Notes under the pieces: generated by a model
Databases searched by the model: none
Told to the model about the DNA's origin: nothing
The model's input: the letters and a program-made list of their open reading frames with translations, nothing else
IMG/VR virus record: IMGVR_UViG_3300037468_000493
Location: 1 to 64,000 of that record
Length of the DNA stretch: 64,000 nt
Source of the DNA: a virus
Direction: 5' to 3' (one strand)
Made by a program: the position numbers and the translations under genes
Part shown: positions 2,987 through 39,777 of the stretch, one piece after another
Position numbering within the stretch: the first letter of the stretch is position 1
How the letters are laid out: every line of letters begins with the position of its first letter

Positions 2987-3034
2987 CTACCCCCCACACA
3001 CAGCGCCTTGCCCGGTTCGCTACCGGGCCTAACC

Positions 3035-3313
3035 ATGCCTACCCCATCCCGCAATGTGCTTAGCTTATCGCTGAGCACAGAAGATCAAACCTTGCTGGTT
3101 GATGTCCTGGCCGAGGCTGGGTTCAGCAAGCCCACCCAGTTTTTGAGGAGTGTCGCCCGTCGCCAGATTGCGATCGGCCCTCCCAATAATGCAGGGTTGC
3201 AGCGGCAGATTAGCGCCCTGGCTGAGCAAGTTGAGATGCAGTCCAACGCCATCGATGAGCTACGCTGCCATGCTGCAGGGCAACCCCCGCGATCGCCCAC
3301 GGATCTACCATGA
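3035..3313 (+). CDS. Ribbon-helix-helix-like regulator with coiled coil, coupled to csf1
   Basis: VLSLSLSTEDQTLL...AGFSKPTQFLRSVARR; ATGA overlap with csf1; likely start ATG 3035. Confidence 0.55.
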   Translation: MPTPSRNVLSLSLSTEDQTLLVDVLAEAGFSKPTQFLRSVARRQIAIGPPNNAGLQRQISALAEQVEMQSNAIDELRCHAAGQPPRSPTDLP

Positions 3314-3975
3314 ACACACCTCAATTATTGTACGCATCTCCCCCCGCTGAAGGTGCGGCGGACGGCCATTGCTCAGTCTGTGGATGGCATGGGCCGACCT
3401 ATGCCAAGGCTCAGGTATTTAGCAAAAGTACCGGGGCCGTGTCGGTGCTGGCGACGGTGCCAACTGATCGCATCTGCGTCCATTGCGCTGCACTGTGGGG
3501 AGAACCTAAAGTTTTTGCCCGTGCAGTACTGGCCACACCGGAAGCAGTACTGTTCCCGACTATCGCCCCCGACCCAGCAGGGCAACGGCCCACCTGGGGG
3601 CAAGCGCTAGCCGCCCTAGACCCTACACGGCCTCGGGTGTGCATCCTCACCACTGACCCCAAAAAACGGGTATGGCCCTTTGCTCAGGTAAGCCAGGGCG
3701 ATCGACTCAGCATGTACGTCCACGACCCTAGCCGGGGCATCTCAGGCAATCGCGTAGTGAGCCTGTCGCTATTGCTGACTACGATCGCTGGTATTGAAGC
3801 CATCTACAATCTAGGTTTTAGCAAAACCGCCATTGAGCGGGGGTTGCTGGATGATTTAAAGCGCGCCAAAGCACTAGGCATCCCCGACACCGTTGCCCAT
3901 GAAAGATACTTGCAAAGTGTCCGTATACTCCCTGAATTTTTGACTTCCCTAATAGTCGCTCAAAAGGATCCCTAG
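3310..3975 (+). CDS. csf1: Type IV CRISPR-associated Csf1 (Cas8-like large subunit)
   Basis: CSVCG and CVHC zinc pairs, KKRVW motif, GFSKTAIERG motif; position in operon. Confidence 0.85.
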   Translation: MNTPQLLYASPPAEGAADGHCSVCGWHGPTYAKAQVFSKSTGAVSVLATVPTDRICVHCAALWGEPKVFARAVLATPEAVLFPTIAPDPAGQRPTWGQALAALDPTRPRVCILTTDPKKRVWPFAQVSQGDRLSMYVHDPSRGISGNRVVSLSLLLTTIAGIEAIYNLGFSKTAIERGLLDDLKRAKALGIPDTVAHERYLQSVRILPEFLTSLIVAQKDP

Positions 3976-3977
3976 TT

Positions 3978-5396
3978 ATGCCTGATCGCATTTTGCTCAA
4001 GCTCACTGCCCTAACCCCTGTAGCCCATGGTGAGGCCGGGGCCAACAGTACGGGGCCGAATAACACGACCCTCTTTAATCGCCAACTCCAGCGGCTCACT
4101 AAAGAAACAGTGGGGGTGGACGTGGAGGTCGCCAGAGACGCCATTGCAAACCTACTGACGGCCATGCCTATCGGTGCCGATACCTTTCCCCTGCTGGAGT
4201 CGCTGAAAGGATCTGAATTGGTGGCAGCTCTATTTGTGGCCCAGGTGCCAATCATGTTCCCCGGAGACGGTGAGGGGCTATTTACTGGAATGGAGCGCTA
4301 CCGAATGTTAAGCACCCGTTTAGCCGATGGGGCCAAGTGCTGCGCCACGTTGCCTGAGTTGTGGAGCTACCTTAGCCGGAAGCTAATGCTCCCCATGTTT
4401 CCCTCTTACGGGTTTGAGGTAATGCGGGCGTTTTTCGTCCTCCCCAAGGCCATTCAGGGGCAATCAATTCAGGCCATTAGCAAAGCCCTGGAACTTACGG
4501 TAATGGCCGCTCGGATGCTGGCAGAGAGCATCAAGGCCGAGCGCAAAAGTGCTAAAGACAATAATCCCAGCCTGTTTGCCGCGCAGGTCTACCAGGCCAG
4601 CCCTGAACAGTTAGCCGACCTCACCCGACCCAAGGCTGAGGCGATCGTAATGCCCGTCCCGAGTATTAGTGGTAACGCCCTGAGACACTGCCTAATCCGT
4701 GAACCCGGCGCAAATCGGCTGATTCAATCCCTAGGACTGGAACCCTACACCGACCGCGATGGGGATCACCTGGGCTTAGGCATCACTCGATTTTTGTACG
4801 GCGGTGGGCAGCTTGCCGCTAAAGCCAAAGCACCCAGCGCCAGTGACATTTACGAAGCCGAGGTTCGCAGCCGTTACCCCATTGTTGATGCCGTGGGTGG
4901 TAGCACTGATTCCTGGTTGATGGCCGAAAGCGCCTGCAAGGTCGCCGGATGGGTAGTCTGCGCAGAAAACAATGTGGCTACCCAATCGATCGCCGGGGTT
5001 GAGTCGAAGGTGAGCATTTTCGATTACCTCAGTGAAGAAACCAAGACCAGAACCGGCATTGGTGGCAAGGACAAAGAATCAGGGCAAATGATTTTCTCTT
5101 ACGAAACCCTAGCCGCTGGGCTACCCCTGATTGTTGAGGTATTGTTCAATCCCTTCACCCAACCCCTGACCATTGGCGCTGTGTGGCAAGCGGTGCATGA
5201 CTGGGCCAATGAAGGAGGCATCGTTGGGGGCCGTTCCCAGATTGGCCATAGCCGATTTGCGTTGGAGGTATTGCAAGGTGCATACGGGCTGGAAGGCAAA
5301 GCCTACCTTGATTACCTAGAGACAGAGCGTGATAATCTACGCCCTGGCTTACTCGATGCCACGATGGGGACTGGGGCAGTGCTATGTGCGGCTTGA
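3978..5396 (+). CDS. csf2: Type IV CRISPR-associated Csf2 (Cas7) with a large helical Cas11-like insertion
   Basis: N-terminal LTALTPVAHG...TLFNRQ; VPSISGNALRH; LYGGG; QMIFSYETLAAG; Gly-rich VGGRSQIGHS loop. At 472 aa it is longer than a typical Csf2. Confidence 0.85.
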   Translation: MPDRILLKLTALTPVAHGEAGANSTGPNNTTLFNRQLQRLTKETVGVDVEVARDAIANLLTAMPIGADTFPLLESLKGSELVAALFVAQVPIMFPGDGEGLFTGMERYRMLSTRLADGAKCCATLPELWSYLSRKLMLPMFPSYGFEVMRAFFVLPKAIQGQSIQAISKALELTVMAARMLAESIKAERKSAKDNNPSLFAAQVYQASPEQLADLTRPKAEAIVMPVPSISGNALRHCLIREPGANRLIQSLGLEPYTDRDGDHLGLGITRFLYGGGQLAAKAKAPSASDIYEAEVRSRYPIVDAVGGSTDSWLMAESACKVAGWVVCAENNVATQSIAGVESKVSIFDYLSEETKTRTGIGGKDKESGQMIFSYETLAAGLPLIVEVLFNPFTQPLTIGAVWQAVHDWANEGGIVGGRSQIGHSRFALEVLQGAYGLEGKAYLDYLETERDNLRPGLLDATMGTGAVLCAA

Positions 5397-6079
5397 TTCA
5401 TAGCCCACGGTTTCGGACTGGTGACCTTGAAGCATGGCGGCGGTTGGAATTAGCAGACCGCCTCTATGCCCAGCGATACCGGGCCAAACTACAGCGCATG
5501 GCCGATGAAGCACAGGCAACCATCGCTGCATTCCTAGAGGATGGCCCCGCCTATTGTTCGGTAAGTTGGGGCAAGGATTCTGTAGTGGTGGCTGACCTTT
5601 GCCGGGGGATGGATTTGCCCATGGGCTACATCAGGATTACGCCCTTCAACAATCCCGACTGTGATTTAGTGCGAGATGCCTTTGCCCCTGAGCACTACCA
5701 CGAGGCGATCGTAGTGCGGCCCGATGATGAAGAATGCTCTCACAGTAGCGGCGTTTTTGATGAAGGCGGGAAACTGCTAGAGGCTGAGTTCGACACCGAT
5801 CGCAGAATCACCGGAATCAGAAAAGATGAATCGCAGTCTAGGCGACTCAGGGGCAGTGCCAACACTAAGCGCAGTTGCGTCCCCATTGCCAAGTGGAGCA
5901 CTCAGGATGTTTTTGCCTATCTTGCACTTCACAATCTGCCCATCCATCCTGCCTACGCAATGAGCAACGGGGGGCAATTCCATCGCAATAATCTACGGGT
6001 TGCGTCAATCGGTGGGGTTCGTGGAACCCAATTTAATCGCCGCGAATGGGAAAACCTTTACTACCCAGAAATCCTATGA
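5384..6079 (+). CDS. cysH: CysH/PAPS-reductase-family protein of type IV-B systems
   Basis: PP-loop SVSWGKDS, GIRKDESQSRR, PIAKWSTQDVFAYL...LPIHPAY. Confidence 0.88.
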   Translation: MCGLIHSPRFRTGDLEAWRRLELADRLYAQRYRAKLQRMADEAQATIAAFLEDGPAYCSVSWGKDSVVVADLCRGMDLPMGYIRITPFNNPDCDLVRDAFAPEHYHEAIVVRPDDEECSHSSGVFDEGGKLLEAEFDTDRRITGIRKDESQSRRLRGSANTKRSCVPIAKWSTQDVFAYLALHNLPIHPAYAMSNGGQFHRNNLRVASIGGVRGTQFNRREWENLYYPEIL

Positions 6080-6771
6080 AAATCATCCACATCCCCGAAC
6101 TAGACGCTATGGGCACTCGCTTTGCATCCCTACCCATGGCCCCATTTTGCCTTACCCTACGCACCCTAAAGCCAGTAGCGGGCAACGACGCTTTGCACCT
6201 AGACGGTCTACTAGCTAAAGCGGTGGTGATTGAGGCCATGCGAGGCAAACCACTGGCCCCGACCGAGGATGCCTATTACATGCCCTTGCCATTGGGGCTA
6301 GAGCGGTTGCACCTGGGCTTACCCGTTTGGCAGTGCAATGATTTTGCCGCCGTTGACGCTGCCGTAGGCCATACCCATTATCACCAGCGCAGCGACTCCA
6401 ACCCTTACGACCCAGCCGCAACCGTAGCCACATTACCCCAGAAGAAACGCCGTAGAATGCCACCCACGACCGAAGGGCAATACATGAGCTACCGTGTCCC
6501 CTTGCAGTACACCGAGGCCGATTGCTGGCAATGCGAAGCCGTGGGCAATGCCGATGAGGTGCTGCGGCTGCTGAATGAGTACATCTCTTCTGTAGGCAAG
6601 AAAGGTAGCCATGGATGGGGGCGTGTATTGTCGTGGGCGGTTGAATCAATCAATCAATTTGAACTTTCGCGCCCAGTCCCCACTGCTGATACCTCACGGC
6701 CCTTCAATGCTCAGATCATGGGGTGGACGCCGCCCTATTGGCATCGCGGTCTATGGCGACTTTGCGGCTAG
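6076..6771 (+). CDS. csf3: Type IV CRISPR-associated Csf3 (Cas5)
   Basis: LHLDGLLA, PLPL, GQYMSYRVP, VGKKGSHGWGRV Gly-rich loop, RPVP, PPYW; ATGA overlap with the cysH stop. Confidence 0.85.
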   Translation: MKIIHIPELDAMGTRFASLPMAPFCLTLRTLKPVAGNDALHLDGLLAKAVVIEAMRGKPLAPTEDAYYMPLPLGLERLHLGLPVWQCNDFAAVDAAVGHTHYHQRSDSNPYDPAATVATLPQKKRRRMPPTTEGQYMSYRVPLQYTEADCWQCEAVGNADEVLRLLNEYISSVGKKGSHGWGRVLSWAVESINQFELSRPVPTADTSRPFNAQIMGWTPPYWHRGLWRLCG

Positions 6772-6834
6772 CCCACGGATCGCCCCTAGCCCTGCCCTAG
6801 TTGACTTACTTGTGGCTAAATGCAATATTCAATT

Positions 6835-6953
6835 TAGGCAGAGCCTCTGAGGTTCCCGTAGGGAGCCGACACTTCTACTTTGCAGGGTTCCCCTAGCCCC
6901 ACCCCAACAGAAAGCCCCTGATCCAGCGATGGATCAGGGGCTTTCTGTTGGGG
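6835..6953 (+). ncRNA. Candidate small structured RNA downstream of csf3
   Basis: Putative promoter TTGACT(6801)...CAATATT(6823-6829); hairpins AGGCagaGCCT and GGTTCCCgtaGGGAGCC; ends in a 24-bp stem. Confidence 0.4.
6902..6953. terminator. Perfect 24-bp inverted repeat (bidirectional terminator)
   Basis: CCCCAACAGAAAGCCCCTGATCCA-gcga-TGGATCAGGGGCTTTCTGTTGGGG. Confidence 0.75.
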
Positions 6954-7038
6954 ATATCCGGCTACTCGCTCAGCCACGTCCTGAGCAGGGCAACGGCTTC
7001 GGCTACCGTAGCGCCACTATGGTTACCGAGGGTGGGGG

Positions 7039-7614
7039 TTAGTCGGCCTTGAGGATATCAAGTTCCCTGTTCTCTCGCAACCTTGCGCAGTTATATCGAA
7101 ACCTGGCGACATCTTGCTCAGACCAAAGATCGTCCTCAAGCGCTACAGCCATATCCTCGTCGCCGTCGCAAATTTCCATCAGTTCTCCAAAGTCAAGCCG
7201 GATAGTTTCTTCTGTGGACATTGAGGCAAAGTCCGGGAATCCGACAAAAGTTTTTTCTGGATTTAGTCTTGGGTCTTTGTGCCTCGGGATTTGACGGCCA
7301 CGGGAGTAAATCGGGGCGTTGTTCAATGGTGGGCTGTAAAGCGCTATCAGCTCAGACTCTAATCGCTTCAGATCTACCCAAGGCTCAGTGACCAGGTAGG
7401 CCAATTGGATGCCGCCAATGCCAGAAAGGTCACTCCTTCTATGGTGACCGTTCCATCTACGACGAAGGCTTGTACTGGTTATCCCAATATAAAGAACCTG
7501 CCCCCGAAACATGGCGAAGTAAACCCCGGGAGTTTCGGGCAACTGCCCTCGTCGTTCTATTGGGACGGATGGGAGCAAGCTAGGCTCAATCGTCGCTGCC
7601 GTCATCTGGCTCAT
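7039..7614 (-). CDS. GIY-YIG nuclease domain protein
   Basis: PGVYFAM...VLYIGIT..LRRRW..H...LESELIALYSPPLN. Confidence 0.85.
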   Translation of the reverse strand: MSQMTAATIEPSLLPSVPIERRGQLPETPGVYFAMFRGQVLYIGITSTSLRRRWNGHHRRSDLSGIGGIQLAYLVTEPWVDLKRLESELIALYSPPLNNAPIYSRGRQIPRHKDPRLNPEKTFVGFPDFASMSTEETIRLDFGELMEICDGDEDMAVALEDDLWSEQDVARFRYNCARLRENRELDILKAD

Positions 7615-7864
7615 AGTTGTTCTTCTCCAGTGCCTTGCGCTTCCATTCCTCAACCGTCACGCCCTGGCCTTCGGCTAACTCAGCAGCCATCTGATCTATC
7701 TGCTCAGCATTGGCTTCTACCCTGGCCTGCACCACGTTCTGCCACATTCCGGCAATCGTCTGGCCTTTGGCCTCAGCCCACCAAATAAACCGCTTCATGT
7801 GCCACGCAGGCAGCCGTACAGAGTATCGCTTCATGTTTCGCCGGGGTGACATCGCTAATCTCAT
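7586..7864 (-). CDS. Putative ribbon-helix-helix regulator divergent from the ATPase module
   Basis: KRYSVRLPAWHMKRFIWWAEAKGQTIAGM pattern. Confidence 0.5.
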   Translation of the reverse strand: MRLAMSPRRNMKRYSVRLPAWHMKRFIWWAEAKGQTIAGMWQNVVQARVEANAEQIDQMAAELAEGQGVTVEEWKRKALEKNNYEPDDGSDD

Positions 7865-7988
7865 AACACCACCAAAAGTGTATGGGCTAAGTCGATTCTA
7901 GTCTATTTTGCTGGACAGGTGTTGCATAGGTGCATCACAGTGTGCTACAACAGTCTCATGAAAGCCCGATGAAAGGTCATGAAAGGTC

Positions 7989-8339
7989 GTGAAAACTTTT
8001 ACAGCCCCTCCAACAATCGCCAGAAGCACCGCACTGCGGCAGCTTTCGGCTATTCGGTATCCAGGGGGCATGAAAACAATCTCGATTCCGACCATGTGGC
8101 GCTGGTGCAAACTAGCGGGCATTGAATCAGGCCTTAGGGAGTTCACGGAGTCTCAGTGTTTTCGCCTTGCCCAAATCGCCCAATGGCTGCGGCAGGGGCA
8201 TTCAGTCGAACAAATCCAACTATTTCTAGGAGTGCAGACCAATGACACAAGCAACCGAACGCAACAACAGCAGCAATCCCAGCCGGGGGCAGGGGTTTGG
8301 GGGGCAGACAGCAACCCCTGGGGCGCATTCTGGGGCTAG
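7989..8339 (+). CDS. MerR/excisionase-like HTH protein
   Basis: ISIPTMWRWCKLAGI...REFTESQCFRLAQIAQWLRQGHSVEQI. Confidence 0.6.
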   Translation: MKTFTAPPTIARSTALRQLSAIRYPGGMKTISIPTMWRWCKLAGIESGLREFTESQCFRLAQIAQWLRQGHSVEQIQLFLGVQTNDTSNRTQQQQQSQPGAGVWGADSNPWGAFWG

Positions 8340-8679
8340 TCCTCAGGCCCAGGTAGCTGTCGAGATATCGCAGCTACGAGATCAGGTAAATCAGTCTCTA
8401 GGCGGTGCCACGGCAAGCATTAGCGCGATCGTGGATGAGTACCAAAAACAGGCCCAACCCCTTGCGGATGAGGCCTCCACACTGATTTACGACATGCTCA
8501 GCAACCGCACATTCTTCAACCAGGTTGGGCGCAATGTGGCCCAACTAATGACTCAGCACCCCATGGGTGCTCGGCATGAATTGGGAAAGCCGACATTGAA
8601 GCGCTTGTCGTTCGAGCCCTTGAAACCGGGGACTCAACAGAGCTACTTAACCAGTGCCGTAGACACAACGGAGGGTTAG
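8242..8679 (+). CDS. Hypothetical helical protein
   Basis: AGGAG RBS; in operon. Confidence 0.6.
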   Translation: MTQATERNNSSNPSRGQGFGGQTATPGAHSGASPQAQVAVEISQLRDQVNQSLGGATASISAIVDEYQKQAQPLADEASTLIYDMLSNRTFFNQVGRNVAQLMTQHPMGARHELGKPTLKRLSFEPLKPGTQQSYLTSAVDTTEG

Positions 8680-8697
8680 TTCTAGCCCTGTTAGATG

Positions 8698-8887
8698 CTT
8701 TGACACACCCTTTGACAAAGGCTTTGACACACTCCCATTTTCTGAACCCTGTCAAAGCCTTTGTAAATCTGTCAAACGACCATATATCAACAGTTCAGAG
8801 CTTTGGCTATTCTTCTGAATCTGAAGCTTTGAAACCTGTTCAAAGCCCCCTAGGGCACCTTCTCCCCGTTCAAAAAAGTTGTCAAAA
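8698..8887. repeat. Cluster of 8-bp CTTTGACA direct and inverted repeats
   Basis: CTTTGACA at 8698, 8710 and 8722 (12-bp period); TGTCAAA at 8750, 8770 and 8880; variants at 8827, 8838 and 8868. Confidence 0.75.
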
Positions 8888-8891
8888 ACCA

Positions 8892-9407
8892 ATGACCTTT
8901 ATCTCTGCCCCCTCACGATTCTGGCCCCGAATGAGTGTCCTAGGTGCCCTTGGCCTATTGGCTCTAGTGGGCTTTGCTGGGGCCGTCAACACGGTGGGGG
9001 TGTGGAACGGGAGTAAGGCTGAAGAATTAGCCCAGTCCGCCGAGATGGCCGATGCAGTGGCCGCAATTAAGGCGAAGGAAGCTGAGGTTAAGGCCCAGAC
9101 TGATCTAGCTGCCAGCTACTCAGAACTAGGGCTGGCCCAGGCTACTTGCGCGGACACCTTGGCTCAGTTCTATTTCCAGCCGGGGGTGTCTCTGGCCCAG
9201 CAGTTGCAACAATGGGGGTTTGACTTTGGGGCACCTCGCTACAACGCAGACCAATGGGTGCCGCTATTTGATAGCGCTGGGCTGTTGTCCGGAGCCGTGC
9301 GTCGTGATCCTGCGACGGGGCATCAAGTTTTTGTCCAGGCCGACGAACAGACGCTAGATCAGGCTGCAATCTGTAATTCCAATCAGCTTACGAAGGAGAC
9401 CCTATGA
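8892..9407 (+). CDS. Single-TM membrane protein with coiled coil
   Basis: Hydrophobic VLGALGLLALVGFAGAV segment; likely start ATG 8892, after the repeat cluster. Confidence 0.6.
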   Translation: MTFISAPSRFWPRMSVLGALGLLALVGFAGAVNTVGVWNGSKAEELAQSAEMADAVAAIKAKEAEVKAQTDLAASYSELGLAQATCADTLAQFYFQPGVSLAQQLQQWGFDFGAPRYNADQWVPLFDSAGLLSGAVRRDPATGHQVFVQADEQTLDQAAICNSNQLTKETL

Positions 9408-10177: not shown

Positions 10178-12058
10178 ATGGAAAGCATCATCTACAGCGA
10201 CACCTACAACGCCTTGCTCGACTACCATACCCACCTTGATAGCGAGGCTCAGCAGTCACAGGCGTTCACTGGCCTGTATAAGCTCACCAGCCTGGTGGGC
10301 CTGAGCCTGGGAGGGATGACATTGGCCACCCTCACTGGTTGGGGTGCGTTGGTGGTAGCTGGTGCTGGGCTGGGGTATATCGGTACTCTGATCTCAGAGG
10401 GCCGTAAGACCGGGAAGGTAATGCCACTGCCGTTCATCCCTGTGGGCCTTGATGCTGTAGCCCGTGGCGTGGCTCAGGTAGGGGGTGGCGATGATTCCGA
10501 TGAGGTGATCCCTTACCACTACTTGAGCAGCCACCAAAAAAGCGATTACGCTTTGCTGTCTGTGCTGCTGCCTGAGATTGCAGTGGCCCTTGACGAATTG
10601 CCCACCAATACCGCTAAGAAGGTGGCGTGGTCGCGCATGTCCCGGCGATTCCATCAGCACTATTCCAGGCACATTAAAGACAATCCAGACCTGATCGCCA
10701 TGGGTGCAGACCGGGATAAGTTGGCTCAGTTGGTTTTAGCCACCCCTGACGAATTGCGGCAAATTGCCATGCAGCCTACGGCCACGGCATTGCCAGCCGT
10801 GGAACCGCCCCCCGCCATTGGCCCTACCACCCAACTCACTGCGGTAGATGTTGCAGCGGTAGCTGTAGAGCCTGACCCATGGGTGAGCACTCCAGAACCG
10901 TCCATGCCTGTGGAAGTCTACGCAGCCCAGGTGCCTGTGGTTAAACAGCCGCTAGCCGCTACCCTGTCGGTAGCCAAGACGGCTCTAGAGCAGATTAAAC
11001 AGTCACCCTATAAGTCGAGGATTTTCTTTGGGGCACAACGATCGGGTAAGTCGATGCTGGTTGCCATTGCCTCAAAGCAATTGGCCGATCGGGGCGTGAA
11101 AGTCTACCACCTTAACCTGCTGAGCTATGCCAAGGATGGCCTAGACGAAGATGCCAAGTACACCCAGCACTGCGTCAAGTCGGTGCGCGGCGACATCTCA
11201 AAGATGAGTGACCAAGAAGTTACTTGGCTCGTGACCCAGTCGATCGCCCTGGTGAATGAATGGTGGGCACAGGATAACGCGATCCTGATTGTTGATGAAT
11301 GGGCCTACCTAGCTGCTAAAGATTGCCAATTTGCTTTGATGATTCAGCCATTGGTGGGGCTTATTGCAGGGAAGATGTCAGCACTCAACAGCAGCGGCAT
11401 GAAGCGTACTCTAGCGGTGTGGGCCGTCGCACCCAAGATGGTGGCTGGCAACCTCACTGAAAGCGGCAAGTCCATCAAGTCGATGGAGTGTGTCTACGTC
11501 ACCGTGCCCCCGGCTCAGACCGTAGATTGGCAGGGTCAAGGCGTTGGTTTTGACGAGCAGTTGTTCGACCAGGTCAGCAATAACTACGCCATCACCCGGC
11601 CTACTATTTCTGATTCGGCTAGCAGCCGGATTGCATTTGTCGGCGATCGCTGGCTGCCCCTAGGCACTACTCCAGACATGCTGGATGAGCCCTTAGCCCA
11701 CCCTCGCCAACTTGCTATTCCTACCATGCCCCAGTGCGCTGTAGCCGTAGCCGAGCCCCTGGTGCAGTCTGCCCCTATTTCGTTGTTTGATGAGCCTCGC
11801 TACCCAGAAATCAAGGCACTAATTCCTAAGTGCGATGAGGTTACGGCGGGGATCTTGAAATGGTTGGTCAAGCTGGGCAACGGAGCCAAGGTTACCACGT
11901 CAATCGCGGCGGTGGATGCTTGGGTTAAGACTGCCATTCGCCTGGGCAAAATCTCCAATGCCCAAGCCGAAAGCATTACCCCATTCTTGGCAAGACTTGA
12001 GGCCCTGAAGTACCTGGAATCTACTGGCGATAAAGCGTGGATTGTCAGACTGCGCTAA
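10178..12058 (+). CDS. Membrane-anchored P-loop ATPase (FtsK/HerA/TraB-like) with C-terminal winged-helix-like domain
   Basis: N-terminal TM hairpin, Pro/Ala linker, Walker A GAQRSGKS, Walker B ILIVDE, C-terminal ITPFLARLEALKYLESTGDKAWIV. Confidence 0.7.
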   Translation: MESIIYSDTYNALLDYHTHLDSEAQQSQAFTGLYKLTSLVGLSLGGMTLATLTGWGALVVAGAGLGYIGTLISEGRKTGKVMPLPFIPVGLDAVARGVAQVGGGDDSDEVIPYHYLSSHQKSDYALLSVLLPEIAVALDELPTNTAKKVAWSRMSRRFHQHYSRHIKDNPDLIAMGADRDKLAQLVLATPDELRQIAMQPTATALPAVEPPPAIGPTTQLTAVDVAAVAVEPDPWVSTPEPSMPVEVYAAQVPVVKQPLAATLSVAKTALEQIKQSPYKSRIFFGAQRSGKSMLVAIASKQLADRGVKVYHLNLLSYAKDGLDEDAKYTQHCVKSVRGDISKMSDQEVTWLVTQSIALVNEWWAQDNAILIVDEWAYLAAKDCQFALMIQPLVGLIAGKMSALNSSGMKRTLAVWAVAPKMVAGNLTESGKSIKSMECVYVTVPPAQTVDWQGQGVGFDEQLFDQVSNNYAITRPTISDSASSRIAFVGDRWLPLGTTPDMLDEPLAHPRQLAIPTMPQCAVAVAEPLVQSAPISLFDEPRYPEIKALIPKCDEVTAGILKWLVKLGNGAKVTTSIAAVDAWVKTAIRLGKISNAQAESITPFLARLEALKYLESTGDKAWIVRLR

Positions 12059-12136
12059 TCAACACCCAGTACTCTACGGGGTTCTGGCTGGTGGTTCGCT
12101 GCCGAGGTATTCAGATGTATTTACAGGAGGCACCTA

Positions 12137-12508
12137 ATGACTTACCGAAAATTCCCAAAATACGATGCACGAAAATACGCCTGCGCATTTTTTCCATTTC
12201 TCCAGGCGCGGCATATCCATCACACTATCTACAAAGGGCCAGAACGGCTGTACTGGGATATGTTGCCATTGTCGGTGCCTGCCCACTGGCTGATCCACGG
12301 TGTTGCTGGGGGCGTGCTCACGATGCCCAAGGCGGTGACTCGCCAGAACTGGATCGCCCGCCGGTTGCCCCTGACTTGGTTTTGGAAGTACCCCAACCCC
12401 ATGCAACGCCTACTTCATGCATGGTGCAGGGTTCCGGGGTTCCTAAGGATTGCTGGGATTCTGCTGGGGCTGTGGGTCTACATTGCGCCAGGATCGCTAG
12501 GGCTTTGA
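12137..12508 (+). CDS. Hypothetical membrane-anchored protein, possibly a degenerate HNH
   Basis: HIHHTIY...PLSVPAHWLIH; C-terminal TM; AGGAGG RBS. Confidence 0.5.
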   Translation: MTYRKFPKYDARKYACAFFPFLQARHIHHTIYKGPERLYWDMLPLSVPAHWLIHGVAGGVLTMPKAVTRQNWIARRLPLTWFWKYPNPMQRLLHAWCRVPGFLRIAGILLGLWVYIAPGSLGL

Positions 12509-12525
12509 CCCCACACCACCCTAAC

Positions 12526-12559
12526 AAAAAGCCCCCCGGTATCCACGCCGGGGGGCTTT
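12526..12559. terminator. Bidirectional intrinsic terminator
   Basis: AAAAAGCCCCCCGG...CCGGGGGGCTTT. Confidence 0.75.
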
Positions 12560-12595
12560 GACTATGAGGACATACCACACTCTACATAGTGTATC

Positions 12596-13276
12596 TCACG
12601 GCCCAACCGTGACAGCCTTGACGAACACCCCGTCAACCATCGCCCCATTACGGCCCTCAATCTTTGCCAGGGCCAGGGCCAAGCACTCTGGGCCTGATAG
12701 TTCCAGTAAGATCCGCGCCTCGTCCTCGACGCACCGAGCAACTGTCCCGATTTCAGCAAAGAGTGATGTATTTGCTATGTTTAGCGATGCCGCGTAGTCA
12801 AAGCTGGTTTTCAGGCCAAGCGCCCAATCACCGACAAATTGCCAAGTGGAGAGTCGATGATTGGGCGCTTTTTGTCGGCATGAATCCAAGGTTACCCCGT
12901 GCATCGCCGCCAGGATAGTCAGCGTTACCAACACATCACCAAACTCTAGGGCAATGCGATCAAGGCGACGATCCAGTACGCCCTCGCCCTCAACAATCAG
13001 CCCCAATGGAAACAACTGCAAGCGCATGGCCTTAGACTTAGCCAATTTCCGCCGCTCTAATTCGGCCTCCCCAATCTCTTCCATGATCTTCTGGTACTGG
13101 CCCTGGGTAGTGCCCAGCAGGGGGCGGCCAGCAGGGGATATGATCCGGCGATGGGTGGCCCATGCCCTGATCTTGGGCTCTAGGGTGGCATAGGTGGGGA
13201 GGGTGCTGGATAAAGGCATGGGGCTACCGTGAGTTATGGGGGTTATTTTAGCTTGGGTCATTGTCGCCATCCTCAT
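12596..13276 (-). CDS. MazG-like nucleotide pyrophosphohydrolase
   Basis: WATHRRII...QKIMEEIGE...EFGDVLVTL...CLALALAKIEGRNGAMVDGVFVK. Confidence 0.75.
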   Translation of the reverse strand: MRMATMTQAKITPITHGSPMPLSSTLPTYATLEPKIRAWATHRRIISPAGRPLLGTTQGQYQKIMEEIGEAELERRKLAKSKAMRLQLFPLGLIVEGEGVLDRRLDRIALEFGDVLVTLTILAAMHGVTLDSCRQKAPNHRLSTWQFVGDWALGLKTSFDYAASLNIANTSLFAEIGTVARCVEDEARILLELSGPECLALALAKIEGRNGAMVDGVFVKAVTVGP

Positions 13277-35757: not shown

Positions 35758-36056
35758 CCCCTATCTGGCGAGTCCGGCAAATGGTATCGACGCTGATTGA
35801 GCAAGACGAACTAAAGGCCAGGGCTGGCAGCTATGCGATCGCCCGATTTGCCCTGACTCAAATCAGCCGCAAGGGCACCAAGATATCCATTGAAGACTTC
35901 ATGCCCTACAGCGATCCCAACGCCGCGCAGAAGCAGGGTGAAGGTATCCCGGCAAAGACCGTGGCAATCATGCGGCAATTGGTCAAGGGGCGAGCGTTAC
36001 CAGCACGGGTGGAGGCGGCAGCAATACGGGCATTAGGAGGAATGGGCGATGGCTGA
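35619..36056 (+). CDS. Tail assembly chaperone GT frameshift extension
   Basis: FSRAQRILSECRTACDREREFWDKCYFRIQSAG...MVSTLIEQ...DFMPY. Confidence 0.7.
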   Translation, partial: FSRAQRILSECRTACDREREFWDKCYFRIQSAGVQDPCYHWQEIGLTPIWRVRQMVSTLIEQDELKARAGSYAIARFALTQISRKGTKISIEDFMPYSDPNAAQKQGEGIPAKTVAIMRQLVKGRALPARVEAAAIRALGGMGDG

Positions 36057-39000
36057 CTTAGGAGAATTAGTCCTCAGGCTTAGGGTTGATGACAGTCAGT
36101 ACGCCCGAGACCTACTCAGGGCCAAGGCCCAGGCTGCTGCGCTCAAAGATATCCGGGTTGGCCTCCGGGTTGACAATAGCCAGTACACCCGAGACCTACT
36201 CAAAGCCAGGGCAGAAGCTCAGTCGCTCAAAGATATCCGGGTTGGTCTACAGCTTGACAGCAGCCAATACACCCGCGACTTACTCAGCGCCAGGGCACAG
36301 GCTGAAGCGCTCAAAGATATCCGGGTTAATCTCCGGGCTGATGGACTGGGGGGCGTTGATGCTGGCCTACAGAGAGTCGGAACCAGTACCCGTGATGTGA
36401 GGACATCGTTCTCTGTCTTGCAGGGGGCGATCCAGGGCGCAGCCCAGGCCATCACCCAAAGCCTGATTCAGATCGGCGGGTCATTGCTAAAGCTCCCTCT
36501 CAACATTGTGGGTGGGTCGCTTAACAGCTTTGCAGAATTAGAGACAGAGTTGGTAAACTTAGGCGCAAAGACTACCCTGGGCAGAGAGGGCATACAACCC
36601 ATCGCTGATGAAATCCAGAGGCTTGGCCAAGAATCAACAAAAACATCAGTAGAAGTCGCCCAGGCCGCAAATACTTTATCTCAGCTAGGCGTAGCGCCTG
36701 ATGAGATTCAAAAGCAACTTGCAGGGGTGGTGAAACTATCTGAAGCTACAGGGGCAGGCTTGGTGGAGGCCGCTAAGCTTAGTACAGGTGCCGCTAAGAC
36801 TTTTGGATTTTCAGCTGACGAAATCGCCGATCGATTGGCATCTTTAGCTATTGACACCGCTGCGGATGTTGGAGACGTTCAACAGCTTTTACAACAAACT
36901 AGCGGTATTTTTAATCAGTTAGGAGATTCAGCAGATCCCGACGAACTATTAGCTTTTTTTGCTACACTCATCGATGCAAACATAAACCCAGAAGTGGCGG
37001 CTACAGGTTTAAGGTCAGTAATTGAAACATTAGTAGACCCCAAAAAAGCTGACGAATTAAAAGAGCTAGGAGTTGACGCATTCGACGCAACAGGAAATTT
37101 CCTAGGGTTTGACACTGTACTCAGGCAATTGGCAGCAACGCAAAAAACCTTGAACCCTCAAGATTTCACAGGTAAACTTCTTAGCGCTTTTGGGGCTGGA
37201 GGTATTTCAGCAATTACAGGAGGACTAGGCGGTTTAGATAAAAACTTTAATAAAACACTTGATGGACTAGAAAACTCTACTGGCAAAACTGATGTAATTA
37301 AAGAAGAGCTACAAAAAGGACTTCCAGCCGCTATAGAACAATTTGGCGGATCCCTGAACACGCTTGATGTTGCATTTGGCGCATCAATCGCCCCCATTCA
37401 AGAAGGGATATTACGACTAGGGACAACGTTGCTTAATACCTTAAGCAAGTCCGACATTTTTGATCAGCTTACTACCGCGTCAAATGGTTTCTTTAAGGCA
37501 CTGCAAAGCAATGAAGGGTTTGTTGCAGAGCTAGGCAAAACCCTCGTTTCCACATTTGGATCAGTCCTTAACGCCATTGCATCCGTCGTCACTCGAATCA
37601 CAAACGAATTTATAGCTAACCCTGAAGAGATCCTGGCCCGTGTTCAAGGTTTTGTGACTCAAGCTGGAGTCGTGATCACCAACGCCATTCTTGGGGCCGG
37701 TGCTGCCTTTCAGTTTATCGTCCAAAACTTTGATGAAATCGTCGCCGGGGTGCAGGCCCTGGGGGTTGTCATTGCCGCCGCGCTGGCAGGCAATGTCATT
37801 GCCGGGGTAGTCTCGTTTGGGGCGACCCTAGTCAGCATTGCCTCCACCGTCCTCCCGGTTGTCATCGGCGCATTTACCGCGCTATCAGGCACCGTCTCCG
37901 GGCTACTGCTGGCATTCCAGGCGGGGGGCATCGCCGGGGTAGTGTCTAGCCTTGGCGCTACCTTCTCCCTGTTCGCGGCATCGTTGGCCCCGCTACTGCC
38001 CATCATTGCCGCCGTGGCTGGGGCGATCGCATTAATCGTCGTCGCGTTCAAGGCATTGCGGTCGGAGCGGGGCCAGGAAGTTCTAAGTGCGATCGGGGCC
38101 ACGGCCAAAGAATTGTTTGACTCATTCCGCAATAGTGAACCCGTGAAGGCGTTCTTAAATCTGCTGGATTCAATCAGGGATCTGGGAGTTGCGCTCATCC
38201 CAGTTATCCAAAATGTAGTCGGGGAAATGATTCGATTTGGCGGCGTTGGGATTGAAAATATAAAGTCAGCTTTTGCCTCAACGGGAATTAGCGTCAATGA
38301 TATTTATAAAACATTTTTACTCTTAAATCCTGTTTTTGCCGGTGCAATTGCCCTTTCCAAAACATTGCTTTCAATCGTTACTGACATTCTCAATCAGACC
38401 GCCACTGTCATTGACAACCTCACCGCTGCTATCAGTGGGCCGAAGACACTTGAAGTATCAGGAGTCGATGGGCTAGGCGACTCGCTGAGGGAGGGGGCCA
38501 ATGCTCTAGGGACAGCAGGGAAAAACATAGCGGATGTCGCCAAGCCCCCCGCAGCAACCCCCGCAGCAACCCCCGCAGAACCTCCCGCTGGCCCCACCCG
38601 TGACCTTGCTGCTGAGCAAAAAGCTGCCGCCGATGCCCTTGCCGCTGCTGAGCAAAAAGCTGCCGCCGATGCCCTTGCCGCTGCTGAGAAAAAGGCCGAG
38701 GACGACAAGAACGCCCGACAGACCGCCTTTGACAATGCCCGCATTGCCCGTGACATCGCCGCCGAAGATGCCAAACTAGCCCGTCAACAAGCCTTCGAGG
38801 ATACCAAACGCGCCAATGCCCTTGCCTTAGAATCTGAGATTGAAAGCCGCAAGATAGCGACCGAGCAGGCGATCGAGGCCATCAAAGAAGAGGGCCGCCG
38901 CCGGGAGGAAGAATTTAACGCCCGCCAAAATGCTGACAAGCTAGCCTTCGAGGATGACCTGGCTAAGCGTAAAAACGCCGCTGAGCGCCAGTTTGCCCTA

Positions 39001-39777
39001 GACGAAGCTGAAACACTGGACGAGCGGAACAAGCTGGTTGAGGGCTTCGCCGCCGAAGATCGCAAGGCCGCTGTTCTGGCCCCCTTCGAGCAAGAACAGC
39101 GAGACTTTGAGGCACAGCAGTTAGAAGATAAGCGCATCTTTGAAGAACAGCAACGCGCCCTTGATGCCGAAGCTGAAGAACTTAAGCGCCAGTCTGAGCT
39201 AGAAATCAACGCCCTCAACCTTGAAGCCAAAAATCAAGAGATTGCCCTAGAGCGTGACTTCCAAAACAATGAACGCACCCTTGATCGCCAAGCCAAAGAA
39301 CAGGAGCGGGCTAGGGAGGCATCTTTTAACGCCACCGAGCGCAGGCTAGATGAAGAATCTGCCCGAAGGATTGAGGCGCTCAAGTCCGGCAACGACGCCG
39401 CCGCCGTCACTGCCTTCCGTCGGGGTGGCACCTTCGCCGCTGGCCAAAACATTCTCGCTGGGGAGGCTGGCCCAGAACTGCTCAAAGTCGGCGGTAAGCA
39501 AGCCCTGGTCACCGAACCCAGCCTCATGCGCTTTGACTCCCCTGGCCGCGTCACTTCCGCACCCTCCACCCGGCGCAAGCTATCCCAGGGGCAACTAGCC
39601 AGGGCAGGGGCTGGGGGTGAGCTCAAGGCCATGCGCAAGGCTCTGGAGCGATCGCTAGCTAGGCCCCCCGCCGACATCAACACCACAGTCCAGGTGCAAG
39701 GGCTCAGTGCCGATCAGGTACGGCGACAATTGGCTATGCACCAGTCCGACTTATACCGCAGCCTAGGGGGCCTCTGA
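36049..39777 (+). CDS. Tape measure protein
   Basis: 1242 aa; MADLGELVLRL; TP901-like core (IQRLGQESTKTSVEVAQA, AATGLRSV..L..P); coiled coil; AGEAGPEL. Confidence 0.92.
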   Translation: MADLGELVLRLRVDDSQYARDLLRAKAQAAALKDIRVGLRVDNSQYTRDLLKARAEAQSLKDIRVGLQLDSSQYTRDLLSARAQAEALKDIRVNLRADGLGGVDAGLQRVGTSTRDVRTSFSVLQGAIQGAAQAITQSLIQIGGSLLKLPLNIVGGSLNSFAELETELVNLGAKTTLGREGIQPIADEIQRLGQESTKTSVEVAQAANTLSQLGVAPDEIQKQLAGVVKLSEATGAGLVEAAKLSTGAAKTFGFSADEIADRLASLAIDTAADVGDVQQLLQQTSGIFNQLGDSADPDELLAFFATLIDANINPEVAATGLRSVIETLVDPKKADELKELGVDAFDATGNFLGFDTVLRQLAATQKTLNPQDFTGKLLSAFGAGGISAITGGLGGLDKNFNKTLDGLENSTGKTDVIKEELQKGLPAAIEQFGGSLNTLDVAFGASIAPIQEGILRLGTTLLNTLSKSDIFDQLTTASNGFFKALQSNEGFVAELGKTLVSTFGSVLNAIASVVTRITNEFIANPEEILARVQGFVTQAGVVITNAILGAGAAFQFIVQNFDEIVAGVQALGVVIAAALAGNVIAGVVSFGATLVSIASTVLPVVIGAFTALSGTVSGLLLAFQAGGIAGVVSSLGATFSLFAASLAPLLPIIAAVAGAIALIVVAFKALRSERGQEVLSAIGATAKELFDSFRNSEPVKAFLNLLDSIRDLGVALIPVIQNVVGEMIRFGGVGIENIKSAFASTGISVNDIYKTFLLLNPVFAGAIALSKTLLSIVTDILNQTATVIDNLTAAISGPKTLEVSGVDGLGDSLREGANALGTAGKNIADVAKPPAATPAATPAEPPAGPTRDLAAEQKAAADALAAAEQKAAADALAAAEKKAEDDKNARQTAFDNARIARDIAAEDAKLARQQAFEDTKRANALALESEIESRKIATEQAIEAIKEEGRRREEEFNARQNADKLAFEDDLAKRKNAAERQFALDEAETLDERNKLVEGFAAEDRKAAVLAPFEQEQRDFEAQQLEDKRIFEEQQRALDAEAEELKRQSELEINALNLEAKNQEIALERDFQNNERTLDRQAKEQERAREASFNATERRLDEESARRIEALKSGNDAAAVTAFRRGGTFAAGQNILAGEAGPELLKVGGKQALVTEPSLMRFDSPGRVTSAPSTRRKLSQGQLARAGAGGELKAMRKALERSLARPPADINTTVQVQGLSADQVRRQLAMHQSDLYRSLGGL

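Follow-up and report, generated by a model that had tools for sequence, protein, structure and literature searches.

A Candidate Small RNA Cassette Upstream of a Predicted Bidirectional Terminator Beside a Phage Type IV-B-Like csf Operon

The short intergenic region that follows csf3 in an array-less phage csf operon probably carries an expressed, stand-alone small RNA cassette upstream of a bidirectional terminator, a reading that we hold with modest confidence. The window analyzed is the first 64 kb of the IMG/VR virus record IMGVR_UViG_3300037468_000493 (79,753 bp in full); within it, the csf3 stop (6771) and the stop of an opposing open reading frame (ORF; 7039) delimit the region under study, a convergent intergenic stretch of 267 bp. 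An earlier note on this DNA had proposed a candidate small RNA here, and the proposal gains strength from the recurrence of a 33-nt core in three readable contexts, each with a putative extended -10 element at the same spacing and a predicted terminator downstream. The anatomy of the cassette, its presence or absence in relatives, its copies elsewhere, and its pattern of conservation are direct observations.

The Phage Genome and Its csf Operon

The phage genome has direct terminal repeats of 127 bp. Its commonest octamer is GCGATCGC (HIP1), with 39 copies in the 79.7-kb genome, an abundance that presumably reflects a cyanobacterial host. The operon, on the + strand, comprises a csf1-like gene (3310-3975; PADLOC typeIV_Cas8, 2e-7), a csf2/Cas7 gene with an N-terminal extension (3978-5396; PADLOC typeIV_Cas7, 2.6e-24), a cysH-like PAPS reductase gene (5384-6079; Pfam PAPS_reduct, 2e-10), and csf3/Cas5 (6046-6771, stop TAG at 6769-6771; PADLOC typeIV_Cas5, 4.8e-28). 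About 220 extra N-terminal residues of Csf2 are unmatched by the typeIV_Cas7 profile, and TIGR03116 matches csf3 at 2.3e-10, under that family's cut-off. With csf1, csf2, csf3, and a cysH-like gene and no array, 3310-6771 has the composition of a type IV-B locus. No spaced-repeat array was found across the whole 79.7-kb genome, Pfam searches of the larger ORFs of 1-12 kb returned no cas6, cas1/2, or dinG, and no separate cas11 was seen in the operon. Three tandem 84-bp units at 36097-36330 lie within a 1242-aa ORF (36049-39777) and represent a coding repeat, not a CRISPR array.

The convergent ORF downstream (7039-7653, - strand; 204 aa) has a weak GIY-YIG match (Pfam, 8.4e-4, under the cut-off). 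Megablast of window 3000-9000 against GenBank phages gave zero matches, and a Csf3 profile search of genome contigs gave zero relatives. The sole sister phage in IMG/VR is IMGVR_UViG_3300042561_001378 (G343; 78,143 bp, with terminal repeats), whose DNA aligns collinearly with the window at 80-95% identity. It has an intact operon, in which csf1, csf2, cysH, and a cupin gene precede csf3, and its Csf3 is 86% identical to that of the window. The cupin gene (L003:5642-6007; 121 aa; Cupin_2, 1.8e-11) occupies the gap between cysH and csf3 and is missing from the window operon; the least conserved part of the operon between the two phages is the cysH region.

The ORF at 7039-7653 is replaced in G343, where window 7015-8206 gives way to about 600 bp of unrelated DNA (L003 6834-7440). 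In one metagenome contig the intergenic block passes straight into sequence from about window position 7576. Window 7015-8206 looks like a variable, possibly homing-endonuclease-type insertion adjoining the csf operon.

Organization of the Intergenic Region

A segment of 107 bp (6793-6899, + strand), recognized from the sister alignment and from metagenome contigs, contains a promoter-like sequence, the core, and spacer sequence. G343 does not have this segment; after csf3 its sequence runs from ...CCCCTA straight into a 24-bp hairpin. In the window the segment is flanked by a 10-bp direct repeat, CCCCTAGCCC, which marks the indel boundary. The left copy (6783-6792, + strand) is evident from the sequence, from its self-match to 6890-6899, and from the sister alignment; the right copy (6890-6899) is included in the segment.

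The promoter-like sequence (6801-6829, + strand) consists of TTGACT (6801-6806), a gap of 17 nt, and AATATT (6824-6829), the last preceded by TG (6821-6822) in the extended -10 arrangement TG-c-AATATT, with a predicted start at A6836. The conserved core (6836-6868, + strand), which is defined by recurrence, a covariance model, and folding, is made up of hairpin 1 (AGGC-aga-GCCT, 6836-6846), a CTGA linker (6847-6850), hairpin 2 (GGTTCCC-gta-GGGAGCC, 6851-6867; 7 bp, including one U-G wobble), and G6868. It is followed by a non-conserved spacer (6869-6901, + strand) that differs in all three contexts and carries a second GGTTCCCCTAG, by the predicted bidirectional intrinsic terminator (6902-6953, both strands), and by an intergenic block (6954-7035) that, according to alignment and blastn breakpoints, is common to the sister phage until the downstream genes diverge. 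Small hairpins occur in the window at 6968-7030 and are not conserved in the sister phage.

The promoter, hairpins, second GGTTCCCCTAG, and 24-bp stem described in the earlier note are all present where it had placed them. The intergenic sequence is strongly folded (z = -6.5), with 0 of 200 shuffles folding equally well, and none of 100 shuffles matched the 32-nt two-hairpin core with up to three mismatches. An ORF at 6834-6977 (- strand, 47 aa) was rejected as a gene; it crosses the hairpin and the optional segment and therefore cannot be conserved.

A Predicted Bidirectional Terminator

The stem is perfect over 24 bp (6902-6925 paired with 6930-6953, loop GCGA). Its inner, G+C-rich part (6914-6925/6930-6941) is flanked by the mutually pairing AACAGAAA and UUUCUGUU, and CCCC/GGGG extends the stem to its full length. 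At 6906-6949 a U-rich tract follows the G+C-rich hairpin on each strand; because such a tract follows a strong stem on either strand, 6902-6953 reads as a bidirectional intrinsic terminator. A simple terminator scan missed it because the U-tract sits inside the extended stem, and Rfam in E-value mode gave only generic hairpin and miRNA-type matches, on this stem.

Bidirectional intrinsic (rho-independent) terminators occur between convergent genes, and the stem lies between csf3 and the convergent ORF at 7039-7653. It is kept in G343, with a compensatory change (G6910:C6945 to C:G) and one different loop base. The G+C-rich stem, the A-rich 5′ arm pairing with a U-rich 3′ arm, the position between convergent genes, and the retention of structure by compensatory change are all as in known terminators of this class; unlike them, the stem is unusually long (24 perfect pairs) and has an interrupted U-tract (UUUCUGUU) that is followed by GGGG, and it is known from sequence.

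The Core in Other Contexts

The 17-mer of hairpin 2 recurs in G343 at another place (contig positions 1147-1183, minus strand, about 5.8 kb away) as part of a core that differs from that of the window by one base; the common stretch is AGGCAGAGCCT[C/A]TGAGGTTCCCGTAGGGAGCCG. This site lies between homologues of the window ORFs 12596-13276 (-) and 12037-12561 (+). At the G343 site (L035:1056-1240) a local segment of about 32 nt is duplicated around the core, and a canonical bidirectional terminator comes next. The corresponding window sequence (12562-12640, -) is an empty site with a single copy of the ~32-nt segment (TGTCACGGTTGGG..CACTATGTAG), which overlaps the 3′ end of ORF 12596-13276. Exactly one core copy is present per phage genome in both phages, and the two sites may result either from mobility or from two ancestral copies of which each phage lost a different one.

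An exact search with the 18-mer of hairpin 2 across 185,579 species, each represented by one genome, gave four single matches, never in an array. One of these is in a Trichormus sp. metagenome-assembled genome (MAG; Nostocales, JAHHIM010000042), in the order TGaTATAAT, 6 nt, AGGCATAGCCTACGAGGTTCCCGTAGGGAGCCG, 6 nt, and a canonical terminator, a unit that would yield an RNA of about 70-75 nt. The core is single-copy in that genome and is the only DNA common to 60 kb of the phage and the MAG. No csf2 or csf3 was found in the MAG, an incomplete assembly in which their absence is unproven. The Trichormus core (L051:3309-4773) lies between a convergent DUF3800 gene and a DUF6888/DUF6887 small-gene pair, in a strain-specific, accessory region; among 120 other genomes of the family only the small genes have matches, the part comprising DUF3800 and the core has no counterpart, and neither an orthologous nor an empty site turned up. 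Rfam gave nothing useful at this locus.

No further copies were found in 201 genomes of the order (pattern search, up to three mismatches) or in 151 genomes of the family (covariance model), so with three or four contexts in all the core family is tiny. The covariance model scores the window core at 63.4 bits, that of the sister phage at 65.8, and that of Trichormus at 61.7. Paired positions are invariant in all copies, and because the copies are nearly identical no core base pair is backed by covariation.

Other matches to the hairpin-2 sequence were attributed to chance: the IMG/VR 17-mer matches (L036-L047), which are single and have flanks unlike those of the core, and the single non-cyanobacterial genome matches (L048-L050). 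In three Nostocaceae genomes the 17-mer was not found beyond the core itself. An unrelated 141-kb phage (IMGVR_UViG_3300031418_000008) carries the 17-mer GGTTCCCGTAGGGAGCC within a cluster of 17 tRNA genes (L034:2560-2660), in a tRNA-like stretch uncalled by ARAGORN, just before a T-loop-like arm (TTCGAATC). A tRNA mimic was rejected for the window core; ARAGORN predicts neither a tRNA nor a tmRNA in the window, and the 17-mer identity was treated as chance. A hammerhead reading of CUGAGG...GAC was also rejected, since A9 and GAA are missing on inspection by eye and Rfam is likewise against it.

Four metagenome runs were read against the window region. The cassette follows csf3 in contigs from three other studies (X3 record 9 bridges 6444-6823; X6 record 26 covers 6771-6987). 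In X4, a joint connects opposite strands, with the csf3 stop (6771) on one side and the distal hairpin arm (6953) on the other, and we read it as the putative cassette-less form. Single X6 contigs begin to match precisely at 6836, or stop matching precisely at 6868, with dissimilar sequence beyond; this weak evidence probably represents a fourth context of the core, with the same edges. Several X6 contigs end or start within 6954-7035, and indels and substitutions occur at 6884-6901, the indels at 6884-6897. Three runs show a rise in mean word depth over 6786-7016, which was not counted as evidence.

Promoter and Strand of the Core

The 15 nt upstream of the core read TGCAATATTCAATTT in the window, TGGCACTATAGGTTA in the sister phage, and TGATATAATAACAAT in Trichormus. 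Only four columns, T-15, G-14, A-11, and T-7, are invariant across the three contexts, a pattern that fits an extended -10 promoter; in each context 6 nt separate the -10 from A+1 of AGGC, and a terminator lies downstream. Since the remaining upstream flanks are unrelated, selection for a promoter would fit this pattern and common descent would not, and it is mainly this upstream invariance that leads us to prefer a transcribed unit. Putative promoter, 5′ end, and terminator are all conserved across the three contexts at the level of sequence, as expected of a small RNA gene. The metagenome variants differ at 6824, 6826, and 6830, changing AATATT to GAGATT with A-11 and T-7 kept, so that the -10 is weakened in most of them.

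The core folds better on the plus strand (-14.4 kcal/mol, z -2.0) than on the minus strand (-10.4 kcal/mol, z -0.5), and the U-G pair of hairpin 2 would be C-A on the minus strand. Both features, the wobble pair and the stronger fold, are specific to plus and indicate that it is the RNA strand.

The Proposed Second Repeat Copy

The earlier note read the region as a degenerate mini-array, with a second repeat copy beyond the core, and this reading does not hold up. The second copy, GGTTCCCCTAG at 6886-6896, matches the first at 10 of 11 nt, and the match stops at 11 nt with the 3′ half of the hairpin missing. Allowing up to one mismatch, 4.1 occurrences of GGTTCCCNTAG are expected in the window, and a pair of such 11-mers (up to one mismatch, no more than 60 nt apart) arises in 39-48 of 1,000 shuffles of the region; the second copy is thus marginal, not clearly above chance. 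It overlaps the right copy (6890-6899) of the direct repeat CCCCTAGCCC and is the indel junction relative to the sister phage. The interval 6836-6901 has no pair of near-identical repeats in the CRISPR size range (about 23-40 nt) around a spacer, nor does it match CRISPR-DR families (Rfam, E-value mode over 5272-8538, E up to 10); at gathering score Rfam finds nothing in the whole window.

The variable part includes the unstructured stretch that the earlier note had taken as spacer-like, and the search for a target came back empty. The interval 6869-6901 has no match above chance in its own phage genome, no exact 20-mer match in IMG/VR, and none in GenBank phages; no protospacer appeared in these sets or in the host-genome search, which covered one Trichormus MAG. 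The stretch after the core duplicates local sequence in the sister phage and is 6 nt in Trichormus.

Alternative Explanations

The segment may instead be a neutral or 3′-untranslated-region indel that makes no independent RNA, its hairpins at most stabilizing the 3′ end of the csf mRNA or aiding termination; we consider this unlikely, although several observations suit it. Presence and absence are bounded by direct repeats (10 bp in the window, about 32 bp in the sister phage), the segment is invariably next to a terminator that separates convergent genes, metagenome copies differ in the -10, and the promoter match by itself occurs at about chance frequency (two in 2 kb, against 1.3 +/- 1.2 expected). 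It would not account for a core that stays nearly unchanged while both flanks differ entirely in three contexts, for the four extended -10 positions being the only invariant upstream bases, or for the keeping of exactly one copy per phage. In Trichormus and the sister phage, moreover, the core faces the terminator from the gene-less side or follows a different gene; because these copies follow no csf gene, the core is not a feature of the csf 3′ untranslated region.

It is improbable that the core acts as DNA, whether as a site for protein binding or recombination or as one end of a very small mobile element, and relocates with no RNA role. Different places in the sister phages, flanking direct repeats, sharp edges at 6836 and 6868 in another metagenome context, and a Trichormus copy in an accessory, strain-specific region would all be natural for such a site. 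The core is single-copy in every genome and, unlike MITEs or IS ends, extremely rare across genomes; the repeats on its flanks share neither length nor sequence, hairpin 2 has arms that form an imperfect DNA palindrome and require a U-G pair, and the conserved promoter positions are left unexplained.

A role as an RNA anti-CRISPR (Racr, a solitary repeat unit) or a viral crRNA-like RNA, mimicking a host repeat and sequestering or redirecting Cas proteins, seems quite improbable. Solitary repeat units and viral crRNA-like RNAs have a similar size and layout (PMC10651486; 10.1101/2024.10.29.618823). The window element resembles them in being phage-borne, solitary, and hairpin-bearing, in its repeat-like length (about 33-37 nt), and in having a promoter directly upstream: its putative extended -10 (6821-6829) lies 6 nt before the core, well within the 250 bp used to define solitary repeat units. 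Cyanobacterial CRISPR repeats are of similar length to this unit. Unlike solitary repeat units, the element has no similarity to CRISPR repeats in the collections searched and lacks both a conserved handle and a partial spacer that matches a target. The core itself has no Rfam CRISPR-DR match (E up to 10), the hairpin-2 18-mer has only its four single, non-array matches among the 185,579 species genomes, zero array-like repeats were found in the 151 (covariance model) and 201 (pattern) cyanobacterial genomes, the conserved 3′ handle is missing after the hairpin, and the Trichormus copy is itself solitary. Repeat similarity is thus absent from the genomes searched; a diverged repeat may be present in the true host of the phage. 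With a targetless variable part and unmatched CRISPR repeats, neither a crRNA-like guide nor a Racr mimic is supported.

The earlier note had proposed that the region supplies the missing guide or scaffold RNA of the IV-B complex; on this view the core RNA would serve the phage Csf complex as its own guide, handle, or scaffold. In PMC7937560, the type IV-B Csf complex studied there bound heterogeneous RNA of about 55-60 nt and was not specific for any one sequence, and which RNA Csf3 recognizes is left open. The window locus is like that system in having an IV-B-like csf operon and no array; the core is tied to Csf by position in one phage only. The core adjoins csf3 on the same strand in the window, and each of the two sister phages with csf genes retains a single copy no more than about 6 kb from the operon; since the phages are close kin, this co-occurrence is by descent. 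As a specific form of the idea, the 33-nt double-hairpin RNA could nucleate the array-less complex, for example via Csf3 or Csf1; Cas6 would be unneeded because the RNA would be made from its own promoter, and the location of the core would be free because the RNA would act in trans. We regard this as a long shot.

Conservation downstream of csf3 in related loci, which the earlier note named as a check and whose absence it listed among the refuting outcomes, is wanting at this position in G343 and in 30 other loci. These loci (23 metagenomic and 7 viral) have Csf3 proteins 25-75% identical to that of the window and leave out the closest Csf3 relatives, P0001-P0008 (71-97% identical). Downstream of csf3 they have a simple terminator or the next gene, nothing similar to the cassette is present, and the covariance model of the core gives 0 matches, including loci whose Csf3 is 75% and 50% identical. 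One distant locus (L015:4709-4948; Csf3 29% identical) has a strong promoter-like TTGACA-17-TACAAT directly 3′ of csf3, followed by about 200 nt of G+C-rich sequence with no obvious start codon, to the contig end. The note's fallback, that this is only a terminator region, does not fit either; the region holds more than a terminator. A guide or scaffold function is very improbable, given a core that lies away from csf3 on the other strand in the sister phage, that is missing from the 30 other csf3 loci and present in a Trichormus genome where csf2 and csf3 were undetected, and that has no repeat-spacer architecture and a variable part with no target, which in the sister phage is duplicated local sequence. 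The link of the core to csf is adjacency in one of two sister phages only.

A Model for the Cassette and Its Significance

In the reading that we prefer, a stand-alone small RNA cassette, the predicted terminator at 6902-6953 would end both the csf operon and the ORF at 7039-7653, and an optional cassette of about 107 bp (6793-6899) would have been inserted just upstream of this pre-existing terminator. Transcription would be driven by the cassette's own extended -10 promoter (TG-c-AATATT, 6821-6829), and the product would be a small RNA of about 115 nt that starts at A6836 with the 33-nt double hairpin, runs on through the non-conserved 33-nt stretch, and stops at the pre-existing terminator. 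Transcription, the 5′ end, termination, and any function are what we infer from these features. The invariant 5′ double hairpin would be the working part, and our guess is that it is most likely a protein-binding, decoy, or stabilizing module; it is rather not a programmable guide. The cassette is not bound to csf3, with one copy per sister phage at different sites and a minimal version (putative promoter, core, 6 nt, and terminator) in one Nostocales genome.

Like small RNA and moron-type cassettes of phages, the window unit is short, non-coding, intergenic, and optional between relatives, with a putative promoter of its own. Unlike them, it is conserved in its 33-nt 5′ double hairpin and not in a seed region, its core is also present in a cyanobacterial genome, and it is known from sequence alone.

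For the type IV-B question the outcome is negative; the missing guide does not come from this locus. The analysis leaves a candidate phage small RNA, with a compact promoter-hairpin module, which is the only DNA held in common with a Nostocales genome. If expressed, this module would be an easy object for the study of phage-host RNA exchange in filamentous cyanobacteria.
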